From Bacteroidota bacterium (GTDB taxonomy: Bacteria; Bacteroidota; Ignavibacteria; SZUA-365), in contig DAOSDL010000005.1 in the NCBI GenBank assembly GCA_035362335.1, positions 12,708 to 76,707 of the forward strand: a stretch of 64,000 nt of DNA. Reading direction: 5' to 3'. The position numbers and the translations under genes were made by a program. A model generated the notes under the pieces. The model was not told the origin of the DNA and did not search any database. It saw only the letters and a program-made list of their open reading frames with translations. This document shows positions 5,473 through 38,003 of the stretch, piece after piece. The number at the start of each line of letters is the position of its first letter. Position 1 is the stretch's first letter.

Positions 5473-5886
5473 TCAAATCGTGGCGATACATTTCAACTCG
5501 ATGGCGATGGGGGTGGGGAGCGAGAGCACCTCCACGGTGGTGCGGCAGGGCCGGTTGTCCCGGAAATACTCCGCGTACACGCGGTTGAAGGTGGCGAAAT
5601 CCTTTTTCATGTCGGTGAGGAACACCGTCACATCCACAAGATTTTCCCAGGCCGCGCCGGCGTCCTCCAGCACGGCGCGCACATTGCGGAACACGCTGTG
5701 GCATTGCCGCTCGAAATCGTAGCTGATGACGCGGCCGTCCGCATCCACTTCCACGCCGGGCACGTCGTCGACGCCGCGTTCGCGCGGACCGATGCCCGAG
5801 AGAAACAGCAGATTGCCCACGCGACGCGCGTGCGGGTACAGGCCCACGGGCTCGGGAGCGGAGGAGGAGTGGATTTCCTCGTTCAT
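5473..5886 (-). CDS. RidA/YjgF-family protein, likely 2-aminomuconate deaminase
   Basis: RidA fold motifs are present (FLSGIGP, TVFLTDM, VEVLSLP). The ATG at 5886 overlaps the upstream ALDH stop as ATGA (5883-5886). The track start at 5910 is a GTG that lies upstream of this. Confidence 0.72.
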   Translation of the reverse strand: MNEEIHSSSAPEPVGLYPHARRVGNLLFLSGIGPRERGVDDVPGVEVDADGRVISYDFERQCHSVFRNVRAVLEDAGAAWENLVDVTVFLTDMKKDFATFNRVYAEYFRDNRPCRTTVEVLSLPTPIAIELKCIATI

Positions 5887-7397
5887 GGCGATGTTCCCAG
5901 ATGGATGCACACGTTGGTGGGTTCGGTGAAAAAGCGCAGCGCTTCCCAGCCGCCTTCGCGTCCGATGCCGCTCTGCTTCACGCCGCCGAAGGGCGTACGC
6001 AAATCACGCAGCATCCAGCAATTCACCCACACGATGCCCGCCTCCAGCGCGCCGGCAACGCGATGGGCGCGGAGCAGATCGCGCGTCCACAGCGACGCGG
6101 CGAGTCCGTAGGGCGTGGAGTTGGCGATGGCCAGCGCCTCTTCCTCGCTGTCGAAGGGCAGCAGCGTGACCACGGGACCGAAGATCTCTTCCTGATTCGT
6201 GCGGCACTGCGCCGACAGGCCGTCGATCACGGCGGGCGTGAGGAAGGCGCCACCGGCACAGCGGCCATCGGGCACGATGCGCTCACCGCCGCACAGCACC
6301 GTGCCACCCTCCTCGCGGGCAAGCTGCACATAGCTCAGGACTTTGTGGAGATGTTCCTCCGAAACCAAGGCGCCGATGCGCGTGTCGGGGTCCAGGGGAT
6401 CGCCCACACGCAGAGCGCGCACCTCGTCCACGAAGCGCGCGCGGAAGCGGTCGTACAAGCCGCGTTGCACGAGGATGCGCGAACCGCAAAGGCAGATTTC
6501 GCCCTGATTCGAGAAGGCCGAGCGCACGATGGTGGGCAGGATATCCTCCAGATCCACATCGTCGAAGACGATGGTGGGATTCTTGCCTCCCAGCTCCAGC
6601 GAGAGCTTTTTGAACATCGGCGCCGCCGTCGCGGCGATGGAGGCGCCGGTGCGCGTGCCGCCGGTAAAGGAAATAGCCGGCACATCCGGATGCGCGCAGA
6701 GGGGAGCGCCGACGTCCGCGCCGCGTCCATGCACGATGTTGAGCACGCCGGCGGGCAATCCGGCCTCGATGCACAGCTCCGCGAAGCGACCGGCGGTGAG
6801 CGGCGTCAATTCCGAGGGCTTGGCCACAACGCAACTGCCGGCGGCCAGCGCCGGGGCGATTTTCCAGGTGAAGAGGTACAGCGGCAGATTCCATGGTGAA
6901 ATGCAGGCCGCCACGGGTATGGGACGACGCAGCGTGTAGTTCAACGCCAGCGTATCGCTATGATGCGCCTCGTCGTGGTCGTGGAGAATGGCGGTGGCAA
7001 AAAATCGCAGATTGCGGGCCGCGCGCGGAATGTCCACCGTGCGCGCGAGCGTGAGCGGCTTGCCGTTGTCGCGCGATTCCAGCGCGGCGAGTTCTTCCAG
7101 ATGTTCTTCGACCAGGGTGGCGAGGCGCAGCAACAGCCGCGAACGCTGTTCCGCCGGTGTCGTGGCCCAGTGCCGTGCCTGTTGCGCCGCGCGGACGGCG
7201 GCGTCCACATCGCGGGCGTCGGATGCGGCCGCCATGGCGATGGTCGCGCCCGTCGCCGGCTCCAGCACGGGCAGCCAGTCGCCGCCTTCCGGATCCACCA
7301 ATGCGCCGCCGATGTAATTGCGAATGTAGTGCATGTCGTGCATCATGCGGACGCTTTCGCGACTGCGTTGCGCGCCGCCTGCTTTCTTTTGTGTCAT
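5883..7397 (-). CDS. NAD-dependent aldehyde dehydrogenase, likely 2-aminomuconate-6-semialdehyde dehydrogenase
   Basis: 504 aa. ALDH motifs present: ELGGKNP, FSNQGEICLCGSRILV, FGGVKQSGIGREGG. It is the first gene of the kynurenine operon. The N-terminus is uncertain (ATG at 7397 with no RBS, or an internal MM at about 7346). Confidence 0.85.
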   Translation of the reverse strand: MTQKKAGGAQRSRESVRMMHDMHYIRNYIGGALVDPEGGDWLPVLEPATGATIAMAAASDARDVDAAVRAAQQARHWATTPAEQRSRLLLRLATLVEEHLEELAALESRDNGKPLTLARTVDIPRAARNLRFFATAILHDHDEAHHSDTLALNYTLRRPIPVAACISPWNLPLYLFTWKIAPALAAGSCVVAKPSELTPLTAGRFAELCIEAGLPAGVLNIVHGRGADVGAPLCAHPDVPAISFTGGTRTGASIAATAAPMFKKLSLELGGKNPTIVFDDVDLEDILPTIVRSAFSNQGEICLCGSRILVQRGLYDRFRARFVDEVRALRVGDPLDPDTRIGALVSEEHLHKVLSYVQLAREEGGTVLCGGERIVPDGRCAGGAFLTPAVIDGLSAQCRTNQEEIFGPVVTLLPFDSEEEALAIANSTPYGLAASLWTRDLLRAHRVAGALEAGIVWVNCWMLRDLRTPFGGVKQSGIGREGGWEALRFFTEPTNVCIHLGTSP

Positions 7398-29664: not shown

Positions 29665-30594
29665 ATGTCCGACGCGGAAATCGTTCTCTCCACGCATCAG
29701 CTCTCGAAGCGCTTCGGCAAGCGCGATGCGGTGCTGAATCTGAATCTCGAAGTGCATCGCGGCGATGTGTTCGGTTTCCTCGGGCCGAATGGCGCGGGCA
29801 AAAGTACCACCATCCGCATGGCGCTGTCGCTGATTCAGCCCACGGCGGGATCGGTGCGAATATTCGGTGCGGATGTGGCGCGAGACCGCGGCGTGCTCGC
29901 GCGCGTGGGGGGATTGGTGGAGCGCCCGGATTTTTACCTGTATCTCAGCGCGCGCCGCAATCTCGAGATCGTCTCGGCGCTGTATGGCGCGGTGAATCAC
30001 GCGCGCATCGACGAAGTGCTGGACATTGTGGGACTGAGCGATCGCGCGAACGATCGCGTCAAGGCCTATTCACACGGCATGAAGCAACGGCTCGGCATCG
30101 CACAGGCGCTGTTGCCCAATCCGGAGTTTCTCATCCTCGATGAACCCACCAACGGACTCGATCCCCAGGGCATGAAGGAAGTGCGCGAGTTGATCCTGCG
30201 CCTCAACCGCGAACAGGGTATGACCATTCTGCTCTCGTCACATTTGCTCCACGAAATCGAACAGGTGGCCACCCGCATGTGCATACTGCATCGCGGTGAA
30301 CTCGTGGTGCAGGGCAGTGTGGGCGATTTGCTCGGGCGCGACAGTATCGCGGTGCGCATCAGCATGGAGCCGATGGAGGAGGGCATGCAGGTGCTGCGCG
30401 CGATGGAGTGGGTGAGCGATCTGCGCGCGGTGGATGGGCAATGCGCCTGTGCCATGCCCGAGGCGGATCTCGCGCGCACCAATGCCGCGCTGGTGCAGGC
30501 CGGCATCGCCGTTTCGGGTTTCGCGCCGCGTCGCTCGCTTGAGGATTATTTCCTCAGCATCACGGAGGCACCGGAAGGAGGGAAGCAGGCATGA
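29665..30594 (+). CDS. ABC transporter ATP-binding protein
   Basis: Walker A GPNGAGKST, ABC signature loop YSHGMKQRLGIAQAL, Walker B LILDEPTNGLD. Real ATG at 29665. Confidence 0.88.
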   Translation: MSDAEIVLSTHQLSKRFGKRDAVLNLNLEVHRGDVFGFLGPNGAGKSTTIRMALSLIQPTAGSVRIFGADVARDRGVLARVGGLVERPDFYLYLSARRNLEIVSALYGAVNHARIDEVLDIVGLSDRANDRVKAYSHGMKQRLGIAQALLPNPEFLILDEPTNGLDPQGMKEVRELILRLNREQGMTILLSSHLLHEIEQVATRMCILHRGELVVQGSVGDLLGRDSIAVRISMEPMEEGMQVLRAMEWVSDLRAVDGQCACAMPEADLARTNAALVQAGIAVSGFAPRRSLEDYFLSITEAPEGGKQA

Positions 30595-32546
30595 TGTCCA
30601 TACGAATGCAGCGCTTACTGGCGGCGGCTGGCACCGCCACGCTCGCCCTCATCGTGTACATCATCACGCTGGCGCCGTCGGTGGATTTCATCGACGCGGG
30701 TGAGCTGGCGGCTGTGGCGCATAGTTTCGGCATCGCGCACCCCACCGGCTATCCGCTGTTCACCATGCTTGCCGGGGTATGGGCATGGCTGCCGCTCGGC
30801 GATGGCATCGTGCGTTTGAATCTGCTTTCGGCCGTGCTCGCGGCCACGGGTGTCGGCTTTCTCGTGGATGCCCTGTGGATGCTGCTGGGCATGCAGACGA
30901 GAAAAAGCGTCGGCAAGGGCGGGAAAAAAGCCGCAGCCGAGCAACGCGGCAGCTCAAGCGGATGGACGCGTAGCGCCGCCGCCGTGATCGGTGCCCTGGT
31001 CGTAGCGCTATCGCGCACGTACTGGCGCACGGCGCTTTCCATCGAAGTGTACGCCCTGCACATGTGCATGCTTGGTGTGCTGTTCTGGGCGATGCTGCAC
31101 CTGCTGACCGCGCTGTCGCGGGAGGAACAGACGCCGACGGGCACGCGCAACGCGGTACTGCTGTTGGCCTTTCTGCTCGGCCTGTCGTTCAGCAATCACA
31201 TGAGCACGATTTTCCTCTTACCGGGATTGCTGCTGGTATTCGCGCTGCTGCGGTCCAAGGGTCTGCTGCGCGTTCGACTGCTGCTCATGGCGGCGGGGGT
31301 ATTCGTGCTCGGATTGCTACCGTACCTGTACCTTCCGCTGCGCGCGGCGGCGGAGCCGGCGTTGAATTGGGGCAATCCTTCGAGTCTGGAACGTCTGCTC
31401 TGGCATGTGAGCGGCAAGCAGTACAGCGTGTGGATGTTTTCCAGCTCCGATGCCTGGCAGGAGCAATTCTCGAACATCGCCACGCTGCTGCCGCAGTCCG
31501 TGGGCTATGTCGCGCTGCTCCCCGCGCTGTTCGGCGCGGTGCTGCTGTTCCGCAGGCATGCCGTGGTGGCGGGCGGACTGCTGCTGTTTTTCGCGACCTG
31601 CATATTCTGGGCCTCGGGGTATGATATTCACGACATCGATTCCTATTTGCTGCTCGCCATTGTGGTCATCGGCTGCTGGACGGCGGTAGGCATCGATGCC
31701 TTCGTGCGAATGGCTCAGCGGCGATGGTCGCTCGCTCCGCGCTACGGTGTACTGGCGGGGGCACTGTTGATAATACCGCTTGCATTGCACGCTTCCAGCG
31801 TGTCGCAGCGCGGCAATTATCTGGTCGAGGACTACACCAAGGCCATGTTCGCTTCCTTCGAACCCGGCTCCTTGGTGCTGTCGTATCAGTGGGATCACTG
31901 GGTGTCGGCGGCGTTGTATTTTCAAATGGTGGAAGGCTGGCGCCCCGATGTGATCGTACTGGACAAGGAGTTGTTCCGGCGTTCCTGGTATCTCGACCAA
32001 CTGCGTGTGAATCATCCCGATATCTACGAAACGTCGCGTCGCGAAATCGAGGCCTTCCGCGTGCATCTCGACCGCTTCGAACGCGATCTTCCCTACGATC
32101 CAACGGCGATCGAGAACGCATTCAACGCGATGATCAACAGCTTCATCGACAGGCACATGTCGCGCGGTCCGGTGTATCTCACGCTGGAAATCGAACAGCA
32201 ATTTGCACAGGGCTATGTGCGGGTTCCGGAAGGCCTGGCCTTCCGGCTCTTCGCTCCGGATTCGCTTCCCGCGGCTGCCACGCGGAAGTTGCCCGAGCTG
32301 CGCTTCCGTCCGTTCGCCAGCGAGGAGCGCCTGGCGAAGGACATGTGGTCGATGCTCGCTTCGATGCTGGTGAATCACGGCGTGTTTCAGCACAGCAGCG
32401 GGGAATTCGACAGGGCGGACGCGGCCTTCGATGCGGCGCTGCGATATTCGCCCAGGGACGCGCGCATTCTCGAGTGGAAGCGGCGCAATACCGCGGCGAG
32501 GGCGCAGGGCGCGGCGCCGCCAATGCCGGTACCCGGCGCACCCTGA
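30591..32546 (+). CDS. Large polytopic membrane protein (DUF2723 / PMT-like glycosyltransferase-fold N-terminus) with a C-terminal TPR-like region
   Basis: 651 aa with about 11 TM segments. ATGA overlap with the ABC ATPase stop. Confidence 0.65.
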   Translation: MMSIRMQRLLAAAGTATLALIVYIITLAPSVDFIDAGELAAVAHSFGIAHPTGYPLFTMLAGVWAWLPLGDGIVRLNLLSAVLAATGVGFLVDALWMLLGMQTRKSVGKGGKKAAAEQRGSSSGWTRSAAAVIGALVVALSRTYWRTALSIEVYALHMCMLGVLFWAMLHLLTALSREEQTPTGTRNAVLLLAFLLGLSFSNHMSTIFLLPGLLLVFALLRSKGLLRVRLLLMAAGVFVLGLLPYLYLPLRAAAEPALNWGNPSSLERLLWHVSGKQYSVWMFSSSDAWQEQFSNIATLLPQSVGYVALLPALFGAVLLFRRHAVVAGGLLLFFATCIFWASGYDIHDIDSYLLLAIVVIGCWTAVGIDAFVRMAQRRWSLAPRYGVLAGALLIIPLALHASSVSQRGNYLVEDYTKAMFASFEPGSLVLSYQWDHWVSAALYFQMVEGWRPDVIVLDKELFRRSWYLDQLRVNHPDIYETSRREIEAFRVHLDRFERDLPYDPTAIENAFNAMINSFIDRHMSRGPVYLTLEIEQQFAQGYVRVPEGLAFRLFAPDSLPAAATRKLPELRFRPFASEERLAKDMWSMLASMLVNHGVFQHSSGEFDRADAAFDAALRYSPRDARILEWKRRNTAARAQGAAPPMPVPGAP

Positions 32547-32554
32547 AATGGAAG

Positions 32555-32590
32555 CGGCCATTCCCCGGCAAGGGAATGGCCGCTGTGTTT
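32555..32590. terminator. 12-bp-stem hairpin between convergent genes
   Basis: gcggccattccc-cggcaa-gggaatggccgc, then tgtgtttc. Confidence 0.5.
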
Positions 32591-32606
32591 CATACCGCCG
32601 CGTCGA

Positions 32607-32972
32607 TTATTCGGCTTTGCCCGGAATGGGATCCACGGCGTAGCTGGCGACCGCGCGCTCGACGGAGTCGAAGCTCTTGAACACTTTCACAAGCTGCGTG
32701 ATCATGAAGAGACTGTTGATTTTCTCGGTTACGTTGGCAATGCGCATGTCCCCACCCCCATTGTTCACCGTGGCGAGTGCGGAGATCAATGCGCCGAGTC
32801 CGGAGCTGTTCACCCATTTCAGTTTGCCGACGTCGAGCACGATTTTCAGAAAACCGTCACGCACGAGATGCTTGACGGCATCGCGAAGTTCCGTGGTGTC
32901 CGGCTCGCCCATGAGGTTTCCCTTCATCTCGAGAACGACGACGTCCCCGCGGAATTCCTCCTTGATATTCAT
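32607..32972 (-). CDS. STAS-domain anti-sigma-factor antagonist (SpoIIAA-like)
   Basis: ATG at 32972 (MNIKEEFRGDVVVLEMKGNLMG...). AGAGGAA ribosome-binding site. The conserved phosphorylatable Ser region is in NSSGLGALI. Confidence 0.8.
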   Translation of the reverse strand: MNIKEEFRGDVVVLEMKGNLMGEPDTTELRDAVKHLVRDGFLKIVLDVGKLKWVNSSGLGALISALATVNNGGGDMRIANVTEKINSLFMITQLVKVFKSFDSVERAVASYAVDPIPGKAE

Positions 32973-32997
32973 GGTGTTCCTCTGTTGTGAAAAAGAT

Positions 32998-33213
32998 CTA
33001 CTGATTGTGTCGTTTGTTGGATTGCGCGAGTTGCGCGAATTCGCAATTGCCCTGATGGGTGCAGCTGCCACAATGCGCCACTTCGCGGGGCACGGCACCG
33101 AAGCAACGTGGGCATCGGTCCGAGAGCGGATTCAGGATGAGGTAATCGCAGTGGGGACAATGCCGCTGTTCAGAGCGCAATTGTTCTTCATGCGCGCGCA
33201 GTTCGTCGCTCAT
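32998..33213 (-). CDS. Small Cys-rich zinc-ribbon-like protein (71 aa)
   Basis: CPHC...CPRC...CGSC...C pattern. Codon usage is consistent with coding sequence. No clear ribosome-binding site. Confidence 0.35.
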   Translation of the reverse strand: MSDELRAHEEQLRSEQRHCPHCDYLILNPLSDRCPRCFGAVPREVAHCGSCTHQGNCEFAQLAQSNKRHNQ

Positions 33214-33602: not shown

Positions 33603-34376
33603 TCACGGATCGAGACGGAATTTCGGATGCAGCAACTCCGCGATGTCCTTGAGGGGGAGGAGGATCTCGGTGGGACCCTGTGCGTAGGAAGCCACCTCGT
33701 AATTGTTGTAGTACAGCAGCAGGCCCTCGTCGGTAAGGGCCATGTTGTCGGGCAGCGTGAAGCGATCCCCGTCGAACCAATAGCCCGCATCACGCAGGGA
33801 TTGCTGATCGGGCACTCCGCGGATCGAGCGGAACGCTTTTTCCGCGAGCCGCAGAAGTTGATCCCGTCCGGAATCGTCGATAAGATGCCGTGGTGAGACG
33901 CTGGAGCCGTCACGGCTGTCGCACATCAGAAGTATGGAAGTGCTGTTGGGATGCGCGCCACCGGAATACACGGATTCATCCAGGCGCAGCGTCACTATGG
34001 AGGAGGATGAGAGGAGCACGCTGGTGGCGCGTTCGAGAAACCAGCCGTTGCCGAGGTCGGGGATTTCCTCGCGTGCGGCGAGGTAAGCCTCGCCCCACGC
34101 TTTGCACAGCGTGGCCGCGTCGGGATAGCCGCTGCCTTCCGAGAACGTGGCGAAGGTCAATGCACGCACCTGCGCCCGAAGGGAATCCGCCACCGCTCCT
34201 TGTCCATCGAAGCGCGGATAGCTCAACGTGATAACGGCGCCGGAGGATTGTTCGCCTCCGCAATCACCGTAGCAGGCGGTGGTGTCGGCAAGTTCGTAGG
34301 AGAAAGATGTTCCGCCATGTGGGGAGCATTGCACGAGGCCGATGGCGAGGCAAAGGGTAATGTAGAAGCGTAGCAT
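33603..34376 (-). CDS. DUF3298/DUF4163 (RsiV/PdaC-like) lipoprotein
   Basis: Lipobox LVQCS. The SGGAHP motif is typical of DUF3298. Confidence 0.68.
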   Translation of the reverse strand: MLRFYITLCLAIGLVQCSPHGGTSFSYELADTTACYGDCGGEQSSGAVITLSYPRFDGQGAVADSLRAQVRALTFATFSEGSGYPDAATLCKAWGEAYLAAREEIPDLGNGWFLERATSVLLSSSSIVTLRLDESVYSGGAHPNSTSILLMCDSRDGSSVSPRHLIDDSGRDQLLRLAEKAFRSIRGVPDQQSLRDAGYWFDGDRFTLPDNMALTDEGLLLYYNNYEVASYAQGPTEILLPLKDIAELLHPKFRLDP

Positions 34377-34505
34377 AACAGATCCCTCCGTTCAAAAAAG
34401 TGAGTAAGGAAGGGATCCGATCGGGTTGCGTGCGGGCACGCAACCCGATCGATGGCGATCGTGAATCTATGTATGGCGGACGGCGTGGGAAAGCCGCCGC
34501 AGGTG

Positions 34506-34965
34506 CTACTTCTTCTTCGAGGCGGCTTTCTTCGGGGCAGCGGCCTTCGGGGCAGCGGCCTTCGGGGCAGCGGCCTTCTTCGGAGCGGCGGCCTTCTTCG
34601 GAGCAGCAGCGGCTTTCGGCGCAGCGGCTTTCTTCGGGGCAGCGGCCTTGGGAGCAGCAGCTTTCTTCGGAGCGGCAGCGGCCTTGGGAGCAGCAGCCTT
34701 TTTCGGAGCAGCAGCGGCCTTGGGAGCAGCGGCTTTCTTCGGAGCGGCAGCGGCCTTGGGAGCAGCAGCTTTCTTCGGAGCGGCAGCAGCCTTGGGAGCG
34801 GCGGCCTTCTTCGGAGCAGCGGCGGCCTTGGGAGCGGCGGCCTTTTTCGGAGCAGCGGCGGCCTTGGGAGCGGCGGCTTTCTTCGGGGCAGCGGCCTTGG
34901 GGGCGGCGGCCTTCTTGGGAGCAGCAGCTTTCGGCGCCGCGGCGGGTTTTGCCGCTACCGTGGCT
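34506..34965. repeat. In-frame tandem nucleotide repeat (15/27/42-nt periodicity) encoding the AAAPKK tail
   Basis: Reiterated units ggcagcggccttcggggcagcggcc / cttcttcggagcggcagcggccttgggagcagcagc. Confidence 0.8.
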
Positions 34966-35534
34966 TCTTTTTTGGTTGCCTTCGCGTCTGCCATTTTGTG
35001 TTTCTCCGCTTTGTGTTTGGGGGTAGTGGATTTACCCTTGGTGGGTGTTGTCGCGTTATTGGTGTTTGCTGTGGTTGCAGAAGTTTCAAACAATGAAGCA
35101 TGGGCGTCCACCGCGCGGAGGCCGCCGGCCATCTTCCGGATAACGTCGTCGGTTTCGTCGGCCACGTAGGCCACCGTGCCGATGGTCATGCGCAATTCAT
35201 TCTTGTCAAGATTCGCGCCGGCGATGCTGTGGCTGAAGACAATCGTGTCGTCGAACAGCAATCCGTACGCACCCACGCTCTGTGTGGCATTCTGCCGCAT
35301 GAGCCATGCGAGTACTTTCGGACCGATTTTCGCGTTCTGCACGACATAGGCGAGGGCGGTGACCATGGATTCGCCGTCGCCCCAGGGACGCACGGACACG
35401 TGCACCGCCGCGGATCCGCGACGGATGATGAACACATCATCGATTTCCTGGACGACATCCTTGTAATGTTTGCCATGAATGTCCTTGAGAAAGGCCTTGA
35501 CCTTGGTACGGGTGGATTTCACTATACTGGCCAT
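34506..35534 (-). CDS. YbjN/DUF2170-like domain protein with a C-terminal histone-H1/AlgP-like Ala-Pro-Lys repeat tail
   Basis: AAGGAG ribosome-binding site, then ATG at 35534. The N-terminal about 160 aa form a globular domain. The C-terminal about 150 aa are made of (A)AAAPKKAAAPKA repeats ending in KKK. Confidence 0.72.
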   Translation of the reverse strand: MASIVKSTRTKVKAFLKDIHGKHYKDVVQEIDDVFIIRRGSAAVHVSVRPWGDGESMVTALAYVVQNAKIGPKVLAWLMRQNATQSVGAYGLLFDDTIVFSHSIAGANLDKNELRMTIGTVAYVADETDDVIRKMAGGLRAVDAHASLFETSATTANTNNATTPTKGKSTTPKHKAEKHKMADAKATKKEATVAAKPAAAPKAAAPKKAAAPKAAAPKKAAAPKAAAAPKKAAAPKAAAAPKKAAAPKAAAAPKKAAAPKAAAAPKKAAAPKAAAAPKKAAAPKAAAAPKKAAAPKAAAPKKAAAPKAAAAPKKAAAPKKAAAPKAAAPKAAAPKKAASKKK

Positions 35535-35564
35535 GCTGCAAGCTCCTTGGAATGATGTCGTGCG

Positions 35565-36233
35565 TTATTCTTTGTTCGCCGCGGCCTTCAGCAGCGCAAG
35601 CTCATCCTCGACGGAACTGCCGGCCTCCAATTTTTTGAACTCGTCATCGAGCGACGTGCTTTCGCCGGCGAGCTCCGAAAAGGCCTCGGCCTCGGATTCC
35701 ACCTTGAGCACTTTCTGCTCGTATTTATCGAAGTTGGCGAAGGCGCCATCGCCGATGCCGGCGAGACTCTGCGAGATCTGCTTCTTCGCTTTCGCCGCCT
35801 GATGCCGCGCGATGAGTGTTCCTTGGCGCACACGGGCCTCGTCGAGCTTGGCCTTGAGCTGATCGAGCTGTTGACGCATGACCACGGAAGCTTTCTTTGC
35901 CTCGGCCAGGGGCGCCTCGATATCGCTCGCAGCGCGGTCGAACATGTTCTTCTTCTCCAGCGCCTGACGGGCGAGATCGTCGCGTCCCGCATTGACGGCC
36001 TTCACCGCGCGTTCGTGCCATTCGCCCGAGAGTTTCTTCTTCTCGGCGTACTGGCGCTCGAGCTGCTTCTCGTTGGCAATGGCGGAGCCCACGGCGGTTG
36101 TCGCCTTGTTCACCGCTTCCTCCATCTCGATGACCATTTGCTTGATCATCTTCTCGGGGTCTTCCGCGCGATCAAGCAAATCGTTGATGTTCGCTTTCAC
36201 CATGTCGGAAATGCGACCGAATATACCTGCCAT
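35565..36233 (-). CDS. pspA: PspA/IM30 (phage-shock protein A / Vipp1) family protein
   Basis: 222 aa coiled-coil. N-terminus MAGIFGRISDMVKANINDLLDRAEDPEKMIKQ matches the family. AGGAGGAA ribosome-binding site. Confidence 0.9.
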   Translation of the reverse strand: MAGIFGRISDMVKANINDLLDRAEDPEKMIKQMVIEMEEAVNKATTAVGSAIANEKQLERQYAEKKKLSGEWHERAVKAVNAGRDDLARQALEKKNMFDRAASDIEAPLAEAKKASVVMRQQLDQLKAKLDEARVRQGTLIARHQAAKAKKQISQSLAGIGDGAFANFDKYEQKVLKVESEAEAFSELAGESTSLDDEFKKLEAGSSVEDELALLKAAANKE

Positions 36234-36572
36234 ACGTTCCTCCTGTGTTGGCTGCTGTCCAGCATTATTCAGAATGATACGAATATAAGGATTTCAATCG
36301 TGAATGCAACGCCTATCGCATTTCGATCAATGTTTACAGGCCTTCGCAACAGGTGCGTGCAATGCGCGCCGCGCGTACCCCACGGTGCATTGCATGGAAC
36401 GCATATAGGTGCTCACGCATCGCATGCATGTGTTACGGCCGTGGGGCAGGAAAAATGATAAGCGATAAAAATTTCCGTATCTTGCCGATGTGATCCACGG
36501 AACCCTTCAGCACGCGTCCGGGTTGTTGAGAAGCAACCGGACGTCGCACCTCCACCTTTGCGTTACACCTGT

Positions 36573-38003
36573 ATGACTCGTCCCACGCTCTTCATTATCC
36601 TCGCCCTTCTGCAAGGCGCTCCCGCATGCATGGCCCAGGGACATGCCGACCTCAACGCGACAGACGTGGCAGTCTCACAACGCGATCTGCTGCTGCATGT
36701 GCAGTGGCTCGCCGACGATGCGCGCGAGGGACGCGAGGTGGGTTCACCGGGCAACGATTCCGCCGCGTTGTACATCGAAAAGGTCTTCGCTCGTCATGGT
36801 CTGTTGCCCGCAGGTGCCGCCGGCTACACGCAGGACTTCGAATTTCAGTCGCCGACCCGACTGTTTGAACACGCGCTGAGCCAGTTGCTCTCCGATTCTT
36901 CGGGTGATGGCGCATCGGTGAATACCGAGGCACTGCAGGCCACGCTTTCGAATCTGCTGAATCCCACGGCCTCCGCGGTCGCACATGCGCCATCGTACGA
37001 AGGTTCGACATCGGGTCCCACCGCCACCATCGACGGAATACCGTCGCTGCGTGCGCGCAACGTCCTCGGTTTGATCCGCGGTACGGACGCGCTGCGGCGC
37101 GACAGCGTAATAGTGATCGGTGCGCATTACGACCATGTGGGCTGGGGAGGAATGAGTTCGCGCAATCCTGGAGGTCCCCCGGAAATTCACAACGGCGCCG
37201 ACGACAATGCTTCGGGCGTGGCGGCGATGCTTGAATTGGCGGAATACTTCGCCGCCAAACCCACGGGTTACTCGCTGCTCTTCATCGCATTCAGCGCGGA
37301 GGAGCACGGACTCATCGGCTCGAGATTCTGGGTGGCCAATCCCACCATTCCGCTCGGGCGCGTGGTCGCGATGCTGAACCTCGACATGATCGGACGTCTT
37401 TCGGAAGACAAGCGCGCGCTTACCGTGTACGGCATGCACAGCTCGTCCCGCTGGTCGCCACTGCTGGATCAGGTCAACACGGCGCATCGTTTCACCCTGC
37501 GGCGCCTTGCCGCGGGAGGCAGCAGCGATCACAGCTCGTTCATCGACGGCGGCATACCATCACTCTTCCTGTTTACCGGCTTGCATAAGGATTATCACAC
37601 GCCCACCGACGATGTGGAGAAATTGAACGTCGAGGGTCTGGAGCAGGTGAGTCGTTTCGCCGCCGACGTCCTCGCCGCCATTGATCGTGGGCCACGCCCG
37701 ACATTCAATACGGCGTCCACAGCAACCGCTTCTCCGGCGAGAAAGCCAGGGCTCGGCATTCGTCTCGATCATGCCTGGGCTGGCGAGGGGGTGCGCGTGT
37801 TCGCTGTGAAAAAGAACAGCCCCGCCGACAGCGCCGGACTGCGCGCGGGCGATGTGCTGCTCCGCGTGGGTTTCGAAGAAGTGGGAACGGTGGCCGAGTA
37901 CCTCCGGGCGATCGGGCAGGCGAGAGAAGACGCACCGCTTCCGTTGCGCATCAAACGTGGCGACGAGATCATCGTGCTGTCCATTCCGCAAGGGCAGCAT
38001 TGA
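36573..38003 (+). CDS. M28-family aminopeptidase with a C-terminal PDZ domain
   Basis: Zn ligands in GAHYDHVGWGG and NGADDNASG, plus FSAEEHGLIGS. PDZ motifs GIRLDHAWAGEGVRVFAV...GLRAGDVLL. ATG at 36573 (the track uses TTG at 36558). Confidence 0.85.
   Translation: MTRPTLFIILALLQGAPACMAQGHADLNATDVAVSQRDLLLHVQWLADDAREGREVGSPGNDSAALYIEKVFARHGLLPAGAAGYTQDFEFQSPTRLFEHALSQLLSDSSGDGASVNTEALQATLSNLLNPTASAVAHAPSYEGSTSGPTATIDGIPSLRARNVLGLIRGTDALRRDSVIVIGAHYDHVGWGGMSSRNPGGPPEIHNGADDNASGVAAMLELAEYFAAKPTGYSLLFIAFSAEEHGLIGSRFWVANPTIPLGRVVAMLNLDMIGRLSEDKRALTVYGMHSSSRWSPLLDQVNTAHRFTLRRLAAGGSSDHSSFIDGGIPSLFLFTGLHKDYHTPTDDVEKLNVEGLEQVSRFAADVLAAIDRGPRPTFNTASTATASPARKPGLGIRLDHAWAGEGVRVFAVKKNSPADSAGLRAGDVLLRVGFEEVGTVAEYLRAIGQAREDAPLPLRIKRGDEIIVLSIPQGQH

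Follow-up and report, generated by a model that had tools for sequence, protein, structure and literature searches.

A chaperone-fold protein with a long Ala/Lys/Pro tail encoded in a two-gene pspA operon of a Bacteroidota bacterium

Results and Discussion

The pspA operon and its surroundings

The DNA analyzed here (the window) is a stretch of 64,000 nucleotides from a Bacteroidota contig. Its minus strand carries a two-gene operon, consisting of a pspA gene and, as second cistron, a gene for a chaperone-fold protein with a long basic tail (the chaperone gene). The two genes share strand and reading frame and are 30 nt apart. This operon, which was absent from the first-pass annotation of the locus, is the main clue to the function of the tailed protein. 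The features of the locus are:

35565..36233, minus strand: pspA, PspA/IM30 family (PF04012), 222 aa, first of the two operon genes
35535..35564, minus strand: intergenic spacer of 30 nt, with AGGAG 8 nt before the ATG of the second gene
35097..35534, minus strand: N-terminal TY-Chap1/YbjN domain with the type-III-secretion-chaperone fold, about aa 1-146 (PF22551, E 6e-13; Foldseek)
34965..35096, minus strand: linker rich in Thr, Asn and Lys, aa 147-190 (pLDDT below 50 from residue 147)
34509..34964, minus strand: polycationic Ala/Lys/Pro tail of 152 aa, aa 191-342 (Tandem Repeats Finder, composition, self-identity)
34506..34508, minus strand: stop codon TAG
34418..34451, minus strand: perfect 15-bp GC-rich hairpin, 55 nt past the stop codon, with no adjacent U-tract (folding)

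The PspA protein of the window matches the PF04012 profile with 161.5 bits (cutoff 33.9, E 3e-47) and the NCBIfam PspA model TIGR02977 with 170.9 bits, which is under the equivalog cutoff. A Shine-Dalgarno sequence, AGGAGG, precedes its ATG, and the chaperone gene has a Shine-Dalgarno sequence of its own in the spacer. No terminator-like site was found in the scan between the two genes, and scanning for canonical promoters and terminators gave nothing above shuffle expectation. The 15-bp hairpin does not match the canonical terminator pattern. Folding of the region 34377..34512, which includes it, yields -57.9 kcal/mol (z = -5.45), and the hairpin is possibly the end of the operon transcript. 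A second hairpin is predicted directly past it (34381..34417, minus strand), in which CCCUUCC pairs with GGAGGG, the Shine-Dalgarno sequence of the downstream DUF3298/PdaC-like gene (33603..34376); the ribosome-binding site of that gene may be occluded in read-through transcripts.

Upstream of pspA, a perfect 8-bp inverted repeat, TGCAATGC-N21-GCATTGCA, is located at 36358..36394. Only loci L001 and L002, the window's own population, carry it, and it is missing in the nearest relative, L003; thus, it is probably not a conserved operator. Further upstream (36558..38003 and the next gene; 5622-7394 and 7532-8905 in L001) are two adjacent paralogous genes for M28 peptidases, divergent from pspA, both with C-terminal PDZ domains and one with a weak PA-domain match. 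Past these lie two TonB-dependent receptor genes, with a gene that has a faint HmuY match between them. On the other side, the region 30591..33098 encodes a homologue of the TMEM260-like protein O-mannosyltransferases (651 aa) and a STAS-domain protein (a domain of the anti-sigma-factor-antagonist type), neither of which is conserved beside the pspA pair in other genomes.

Chaperone domain

The open reading frame 34506..35534 encodes 342 amino acids followed by a TAG stop codon, with the repeat making up the 3' third of the gene. The first-pass annotation described the globular part of the protein as a YbjN/DUF2170-type domain. The YbjN side of this assignment is supported both by profile and by fold, which place the domain in the TY-Chap1/YbjN superfamily. 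It belongs to Pfam family TY-Chap1 (PF22551, entitled 'T3SS (YopN, CesT) and YbjN peptide-binding chaperone 1'), scoring 45.9 bits as part of the full protein and 49.0 bits alone, against a cutoff of 27. For the YbjN profile itself (PF10722, cutoff 22), the score is 23.8 bits for the domain alone and 21.0 bits for the full protein. The DUF2170 side has to be dropped: the profile (PF09938) gives no match even at E<=10, and the DUF2170-family structure BacA (8q8o) is similar at the level of fold only, with 11% identity.

An AlphaFold2 model of the domain, built on an alignment of 26 sequences, has a pLDDT of 89.5 and a pTM of 0.81, and the order of its elements (H-E-E-E-E-H-E-E-H) is that of the chaperone topology. 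Foldseek assigns a probability of 1.00 to matches with 2plg, ExsC, BacA, DR_1245, YbjN, AmyR, SycE and CesT. The matches in the PDB include 2plg (Tll0839), 3kxy (ExsC), 8q8o (P. aeruginosa BacA/PA14_16140), 4h5b and 6vu7 (YbjN). Among these structures, 2plg alone can be detected by sequence, and weakly so.

TY-Chap1 is the sole globular domain of the protein. An identity as a linker histone or as Hc2 was rejected, as the Pfam linker_histone domain has no match in the protein, and HC2 (PF07382) matches neither the full protein at E<=0.01 nor the tail alone at E<=10. Several relatives carry precomputed PF07382 matches, which probably reflect composition. A surface adhesin resembling HBHA was also considered and rejected, since the protein begins with the first helix of the chaperone fold and lacks a hydrophobic signal segment, and since its operon partner resides in the cytoplasm. 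We regard the architecture, a chaperone-fold domain followed by a tail, and the operon with pspA as practically certain.

The linker contains an internal ATG, corresponding to Met181 (34992..34994), with GGAG 10 nt upstream. A 37-nt sequence of the linker is present exactly in the window and in five of the retrieved loci.

Repeat structure and composition of the tail

An in-frame Lys/Ala/Pro repeat ending in KKK had been recognized in the first-pass annotation, with no strand stated. It lies on the minus strand and comprises 84 Ala, 40 Lys and 25 Pro among 152 residues (55%, 26% and 16%), so that 149 of the 152 residues are A, K or P. The remaining three are T, V and S, and the C-terminal end is SKKK. 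Acidic residues are absent and the net charge is +40. When scanned alone, the tail matches no Pfam family at E<=10. No regular secondary structure is predicted for it in a single-sequence AlphaFold model of the full protein, which is a low-confidence model with a pLDDT of 41 throughout. The tail is a positively charged and probably floppy segment.

The tail is built from the subunits AAAPK (15 nt), AAAPKK (18 nt) and AAAAPKK (21 nt). The main period of the DNA is 36 nt, which corresponds to AAAPK+AAAAPKK. Tandem Repeats Finder describes the region 34522..34928 as 11.6 copies of a 36-nt unit with 83% matches (score 485), and gives an equivalent description with an 18-nt unit. Self-identity of the array at an offset of 36 nt is 0.72, compared to 0.30 +/- 0.02 in 1000 shuffles. 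Among the units of 15, 27 and 42 nt proposed earlier, that of 15 nt is real, being the AAAPK subunit, while offsets of 27 and 42 nt give self-identities of 0.28 and 0.31, which is chance level.

Since the array is open in all six frames, three spurious open reading frames extend across it on the plus strand (34400..35026, 34452..35096 and 34648..35169; 208, 214 and 173 aa). Gene callers could mis-annotate plus-strand frames spanning 34400..35169.

Translation of the tail and selection on it

The array is uninterrupted in the window, with neither a stop nor the frameshift that had been named beforehand as a possible flaw. The longest exact repeat inside the array is 42 nt and all of its 55-mers are unique; thus, short reads can resolve the array, and collapse during assembly is unlikely. 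Gene calls on at least six contigs, among them contigs from two different JGI metagenome samples, give the identical 342-aa protein. A metagenome-assembled genome from a separate study (L003, JAMIQH010000021) is about 89-91% identical to the window in DNA over 8.5 kb and encodes a homologue of 333 aa. Its array differs from that of the window by indels of +3 and -30 nt, both in frame.

The tail codons of the window and L003 differ by 29 synonymous and at most 5 nonsynonymous changes, where 27% of the possible single-base changes in the tail would be synonymous by chance. In the globular domain, the differences are likewise mostly synonymous (29, against 3 nonsynonymous). The synonymous excess and the in-frame indels together show that the tail is translated in the minus-strand frame and is under purifying selection. 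This frame is the only one to extend the conserved domain and to agree with the basic tails found in 58 relatives. Selection would apparently act on charge and composition, not on sequence, with the length of the tail set by slippage or unequal recombination of the 36-nt unit.

Conservation of the operon

We sampled 80 loci from species-representative genomes and 80 from metagenomes, and gathered strain variants from metagenomes by a protein-pattern scan. Most of the source records bear the labels Ignavibacteria, Kapabacteria/Kapaibacterium, Chlorobiota or Bacteroidota. The gene immediately upstream, on the same strand, is pspA in 77 of the 80 genome loci and 71 of the 80 metagenome loci (148 of 160 in total). 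At all 12 exceptions, the match is at a contig edge with too little upstream sequence. Downstream neighbours vary, and no conserved third gene, such as one that the tail might replace, was found near the pair; in the tail-less clade described below, the commonest downstream neighbour is convergent. The near-invariant linkage and the lack of a conserved third gene define a stand-alone pair of pspA and TY-Chap1.

A search with the family profile retrieved 1039 cluster representatives (E<=1e-3) among 1.84 billion proteins. Linkage to pspA is not a general trait of TY-Chap1 proteins: distant members adjoin other genes, and the linkage is specific to the subfamily. One distant TY-Chap1/YbjN member (protein P0075; L165 927-3477 and L166) is not beside pspA, and its gene overlaps by 26 nt the end of a gene for a 699-aa ClpB-like AAA+ protein (Clp_N, AAA_2 and ClpB_D2-small domains). 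The TY-Chap1/YbjN fold may partner different remodelling machines in different lineages. Other architectures are seen at L168 1584-2611 (P0200) and in proteins P0089 and P0091, namely a tandem TY-Chap1 gene pair and a fusion of TY-Chap1 with a Cys-rich (CPKCG...C) segment. In P0091 (496 aa), the Cys-rich segment is followed by a long C-terminal extension that resembles WD40 repeats by eye.

Evolution and length variation of the tail

We compared the C-terminal ends of 142 unique sequences on a neighbour-joining tree, counting a tail as basic if it contains at least five K or R. All 58 sequences with a basic tail fall within one clade of 62, which indicates that, on this tree, the basic tail arose once. 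The other 84 sequences, from records mostly labelled Kapaibacterium/Kapabacteria, Ignavibacteria or Chlorobiota, have ends of 0-11 aa that are mostly acidic, and retain the same operon; thus, the tail is dispensable for the core function. The two groups also differ in the GC content of their loci (L001-L164), with a mean of 57.6% (range 42-64%) in the tailed clade and 41.9% (27-62%) in the tail-less one, and in the spacer between pspA and the chaperone gene, which is 13-88 nt in the former and mostly 30-290 nt in the latter. PspA at these loci has a net negative charge (-3 to -6) and an acidic C-terminal segment, and neither its net charge nor its C-terminus differs clearly between the clades.

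Within the tailed clade, the repeat units vary (PAAKK, PVAKK, SATRK, AAPAKK and KKKPAA) and the composition is kept, with means of 41% K+R, 27% A, 12% P and 0.45 acidic residues per tail. Two basic residues stand at the C-terminal end in 46 of the 58 tailed sequences. The charge density of the window tail (26% K) is below the clade mean. Measured from the conserved GGxRxxD motif, tails are 22-199 aa long (median 54.5), and that of the window, at 3.6 times the median, exceeds all others. The nearest sister group (72-77% identity) has tails of 22-29 aa, the shortest in the clade, which makes the 152-aa Ala-rich array a lineage-specific expansion.

The suggestion that tail length varies between strains agrees with this range across the clade, and comparison of repeat copy number among relatives revealed three close pairs that differ by whole units, always in frame: the window and L003, L086 and L088 (SATRK x3 and x4), and L089 against L094 and L020 (KKKPA[AV] x7 and x3). 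However, the tail is not hypervariable, given that the window and L003 differ by only 9 aa (152 and 143 aa) at about 10% DNA divergence and that the protein is identical across samples.

A 96%-identical strain, found in two Logan assemblies (L083 3391-3685 from SRR28237300, and L084 from SRR28237301), has a +1 frameshift in the linker, caused by one extra A (CCAAATAAC against CCAATAAC) at a position corresponding to about 35040-35070 of the window. The chaperone reading frame of this strain ends at 159 aa and the K/A/P tail runs on in the +1 frame; both contigs break inside the repeat. To judge from the sequence, the tail of this strain could be made separately from the internal ATG (Met181 in the window). 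The frameshift variant, the short-tailed sister group and the tail-less clade together argue that a long tail is not essential to the core function.

Proposed function and alternative explanations

The best explanation overall, to which we assign a probability of roughly 0.45, is that the protein serves as an adaptor, which binds PspA and is tethered to a polyanion through its polycationic tail. The globular domain, which would probably be dimeric like other proteins of this fold, would hold a segment of PspA, a mode of action also suggested for the BacA-BacB pair of P. aeruginosa and the YjfI-YjfJ pair of E. coli. The tail would act as a disordered electrostatic tether, parking or concentrating the chaperone and any bound PspA on a cytoplasmic polyanion, with nucleoid DNA, RNA or polyphosphate as the favoured candidates. 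Binding of PspA by the chaperone domain is likely, in view of the near-invariant operon and the published precedent pairs discussed below. The tail, by its composition and by analogy with comparable tails, is likewise expected to bind a polyanion. A nucleic acid or polyphosphate is a more tentative choice of target, with somewhat less than even odds; it is favoured because the experimentally studied bacterial A/P/K tails cited below (AlgP, PhaF and Ku) bind these. Several observations count against the adaptor explanation. The operon is retained in the tail-less clade, the nearest sister group has short tails only, the frameshift strain has tail and domain uncoupled, and the net charge of PspA does not differ clearly between the clades. 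In addition, the AAAPK/AAAAPKK motif of the window tail differs from the KPAA motif found in AlgP and PhaF, the charge density of the window tail is below the clade mean, and a lipid target would be favoured by the action of PspA at the membrane. A bolder form of the proposal, in which a histone-H1-like tail parks the ESCRT-III-like PspA, via its chaperone, on the nucleoid or on RNA/polyphosphate condensates, seems quite improbable. If true, it would amount to a PspF-independent storage or silencing of PspA off the membrane, or to a coupling of membrane-damage sensing to the chromosome, and the size of the parked pool would be tuned by tail length.

The main rival explanation takes the tail as a membrane tether, which would bind the anionic phospholipids of the inner leaflet (phosphatidylglycerol and cardiolipin) and deliver or retain the chaperone-PspA complex at the site of PspA action, in place of anchors such as PspB/C, LiaI or PspM. 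This would fit a protein family that acts on membranes, a PSP literature that stresses membrane-recruiting partners, and an operon with no membrane-protein partner, none being conserved beside the pair. Moreover, 40 positive charges would bind acidic bilayers electrostatically. However, the tail lacks the hydrophobic or aromatic residues that usually accompany polybasic membrane anchors, and nucleic acid or polyphosphate is the ligand of every characterized bacterial A/P/K tail considered here. Since the stand-alone pair also occurs in the tail-less clade, the protein can evidently do without a membrane anchor. Overall, we consider a membrane tether unlikely.

Other explanations seek the role of the tail nearer to the protein or to the repeat itself. 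The tail could act on the protein complex, either as an entropic bristle or solubility tag that limits polymerization of chaperone-bound PspA, as a charge partner of the acidic segments of PspA, or as a condensate driver. The net acidic PspA with its acidic C-terminal segment is consistent with such a role, as are the length of the tail, its lack of regular secondary structure in the low-confidence model, and the conservation of composition rather than sequence. Nevertheless, the charge and C-terminus of PspA are essentially equal in tailed and tail-less clades, and a ninefold range of length with the same partner argues against a tuned intramolecular function, making this role very doubtful. 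It is also quite unlikely that the array is a near-neutral low-complexity expansion, in which a short basic C-terminus grew by slippage of a GC-rich Ala/Pro/Lys repeat and the extra length adds little specific function beyond that of the 20-50 aa tails of relatives. The excess over the clade median, the short tails of the nearest sister group, the higher GC content of tailed loci, the recurrent repeat-number differences among close relatives and a natural variant in which a frameshift splits the tail from the domain all agree with this explanation; the predominance of synonymous over nonsynonymous changes, the modest length change between the window and L003 with an identical protein across samples, and the absence of acidic residues from 152 aa speak against it. 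That the array was collapsed or expanded in assembly, or that its true frame or strand is different, is barely credible. The breaks of the two Logan contigs within the repeat and the six open frames, with their three spurious plus-strand reading frames, could be cited in its favour, but the unique 55-mers, the short exact repeats, the recovery of the same protein from independent samples and of a near-identical one from a separate study, and the agreement of the minus-strand frame alone with the conserved domain and the tails of 58 relatives contradict it.

The regulation and positioning of PspA are poorly understood beyond proteobacteria, firmicutes and actinobacteria. The present analysis defines a stand-alone pspA + TY-Chap1 operon that is essentially invariant over 160 loci, one clade of which gained a polycationic tail once. 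Tails of 0, about 25, about 55 and 152 aa occur naturally and provide a ready-made set for tests of length against binding. If the tail is only a compositional expansion, it is ordinary low-complexity sequence.

Among the ten papers ranked highest in our literature search, none names YbjN or TY-Chap, and thus none reports such a protein with a lysine-rich or histone-like tail. The pspA + TY-Chap1 pair is not described in two PSP surveys either: neither YbjN nor DUF2170 is mentioned by Popp et al. 2022, the main text of Ravi et al. does not contain YbjN, and within one supplementary file of the latter survey the only Ignavibacteria entry found is in a Lia/Toastrack context.

Comparison with known systems

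Pairs of genes for a CesT/Tir-type chaperone and PspA are described in the text of Ravi et al. 2024 (PMC11237479). The pair reported here is of this kind, being adjacent, co-directional and conserved at 148 of 160 loci. Its closest counterparts are BacA (PA3732/PA14_16140)-BacB of P. aeruginosa and YjfI-YjfJ of E. coli, in which a gene for a chaperone-fold protein also lies beside a co-directional PspA-family gene. BacA (PDB 8q8o) has the chaperone fold and is encoded beside the PspA homologue BacB, to which strong binding was reported from unpublished data (PMC10948618). It is among the best structural matches to the window domain, with TM scores of 0.62-0.68. A role as partner or regulator of PspA is proposed for these systems in the texts of both papers (PMC10948618, PMC11237479). 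Nevertheless, the window protein belongs to TY-Chap1/YbjN, whereas BacA and YjfI belong to DUF2170. The pspA gene comes first here, while in the BacA and YjfI systems the chaperone gene precedes the pspA homologue. BacA and YjfI usually occur in a larger operon, whereas the pair here stands alone, without polyamine or band-7 genes, and neither of them has a basic tail. The lack of a profile match, the reversed gene order and the different operon led us to reject membership in the DUF2170/YjfI family.

Short Lys-rich repeats like those of the window tail are also found in chlamydial Hc2 and in the PAKKA tails of mycobacterial Ku and HupB. Hc2 (hctB) is 165-237 aa long and its repeat copy number varies between strains (PMC2848022); the PAKKA repeats of mycobacterial Ku modulate DNA binding (PMC3553676). 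However, these are nucleoid or DNA-repair proteins, whereas the window tail is attached to the chaperone-like partner of a membrane-stress protein.

A similar tail occurs in AlgP (AlgR3) of Pseudomonas aeruginosa, a protein that likewise consists of a folded N-terminal domain of about 125-150 aa and a K/A/P tail of about 150 aa. The AlgP-like composition noted in the first-pass annotation is borne out, as the K/A/P content and the rough length correspond to those of the AlgP C-terminal domain (154 aa). The AlgP tail is disordered and very highly positively charged; the window tail has a charge of +40 and is predicted to be disordered. KPAA, by contrast, had been listed as a repeated motif in error: it occurs once among the AAAPK/AAAAPKK units of the window tail, compared to 25 perfect repeats in AlgP, where the repeat DNA is mutation-prone (PMC9239181). 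The N-terminal domain of AlgP is helical and unrelated to TY-Chap1, and AlgP is not linked to pspA. DNA binding by the KPAA domain of AlgP has been demonstrated, as has its association with polyphosphate granules, whose position and spacing it sets (PMC9239181).

The adaptor logic proposed here has a parallel in the Pseudomonas phasin PhaF, one domain of which sits on PHA granules while its K/A/P tail engages nucleic acid. The disordered KPAA region of PhaF binds RNA (PMC12818456), DNA binding having been proposed, and its repeat number varies strongly between species, with 9 versus 22 copies (PMC9239181, PMC12818456). PhaF differs from the window protein in its partner-binding domain, its cargo and its motif (KPAA). 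Since motif and N-terminal domain differ, the window protein is not a homologue of AlgP or PhaF, and the likeness lies in the adaptor-plus-tail logic only. Should one of the favoured polyanions (nucleoid, RNA or polyphosphate) indeed be the target of the tail, the membrane-stress machinery would become a further case of the 'adaptor plus H1-like tail' logic of AlgP and PhaF. The window protein is an unusually long example of a known tail type, in a setting for which we found no previous description, and the combination of familiar parts makes a coherent and testable result.
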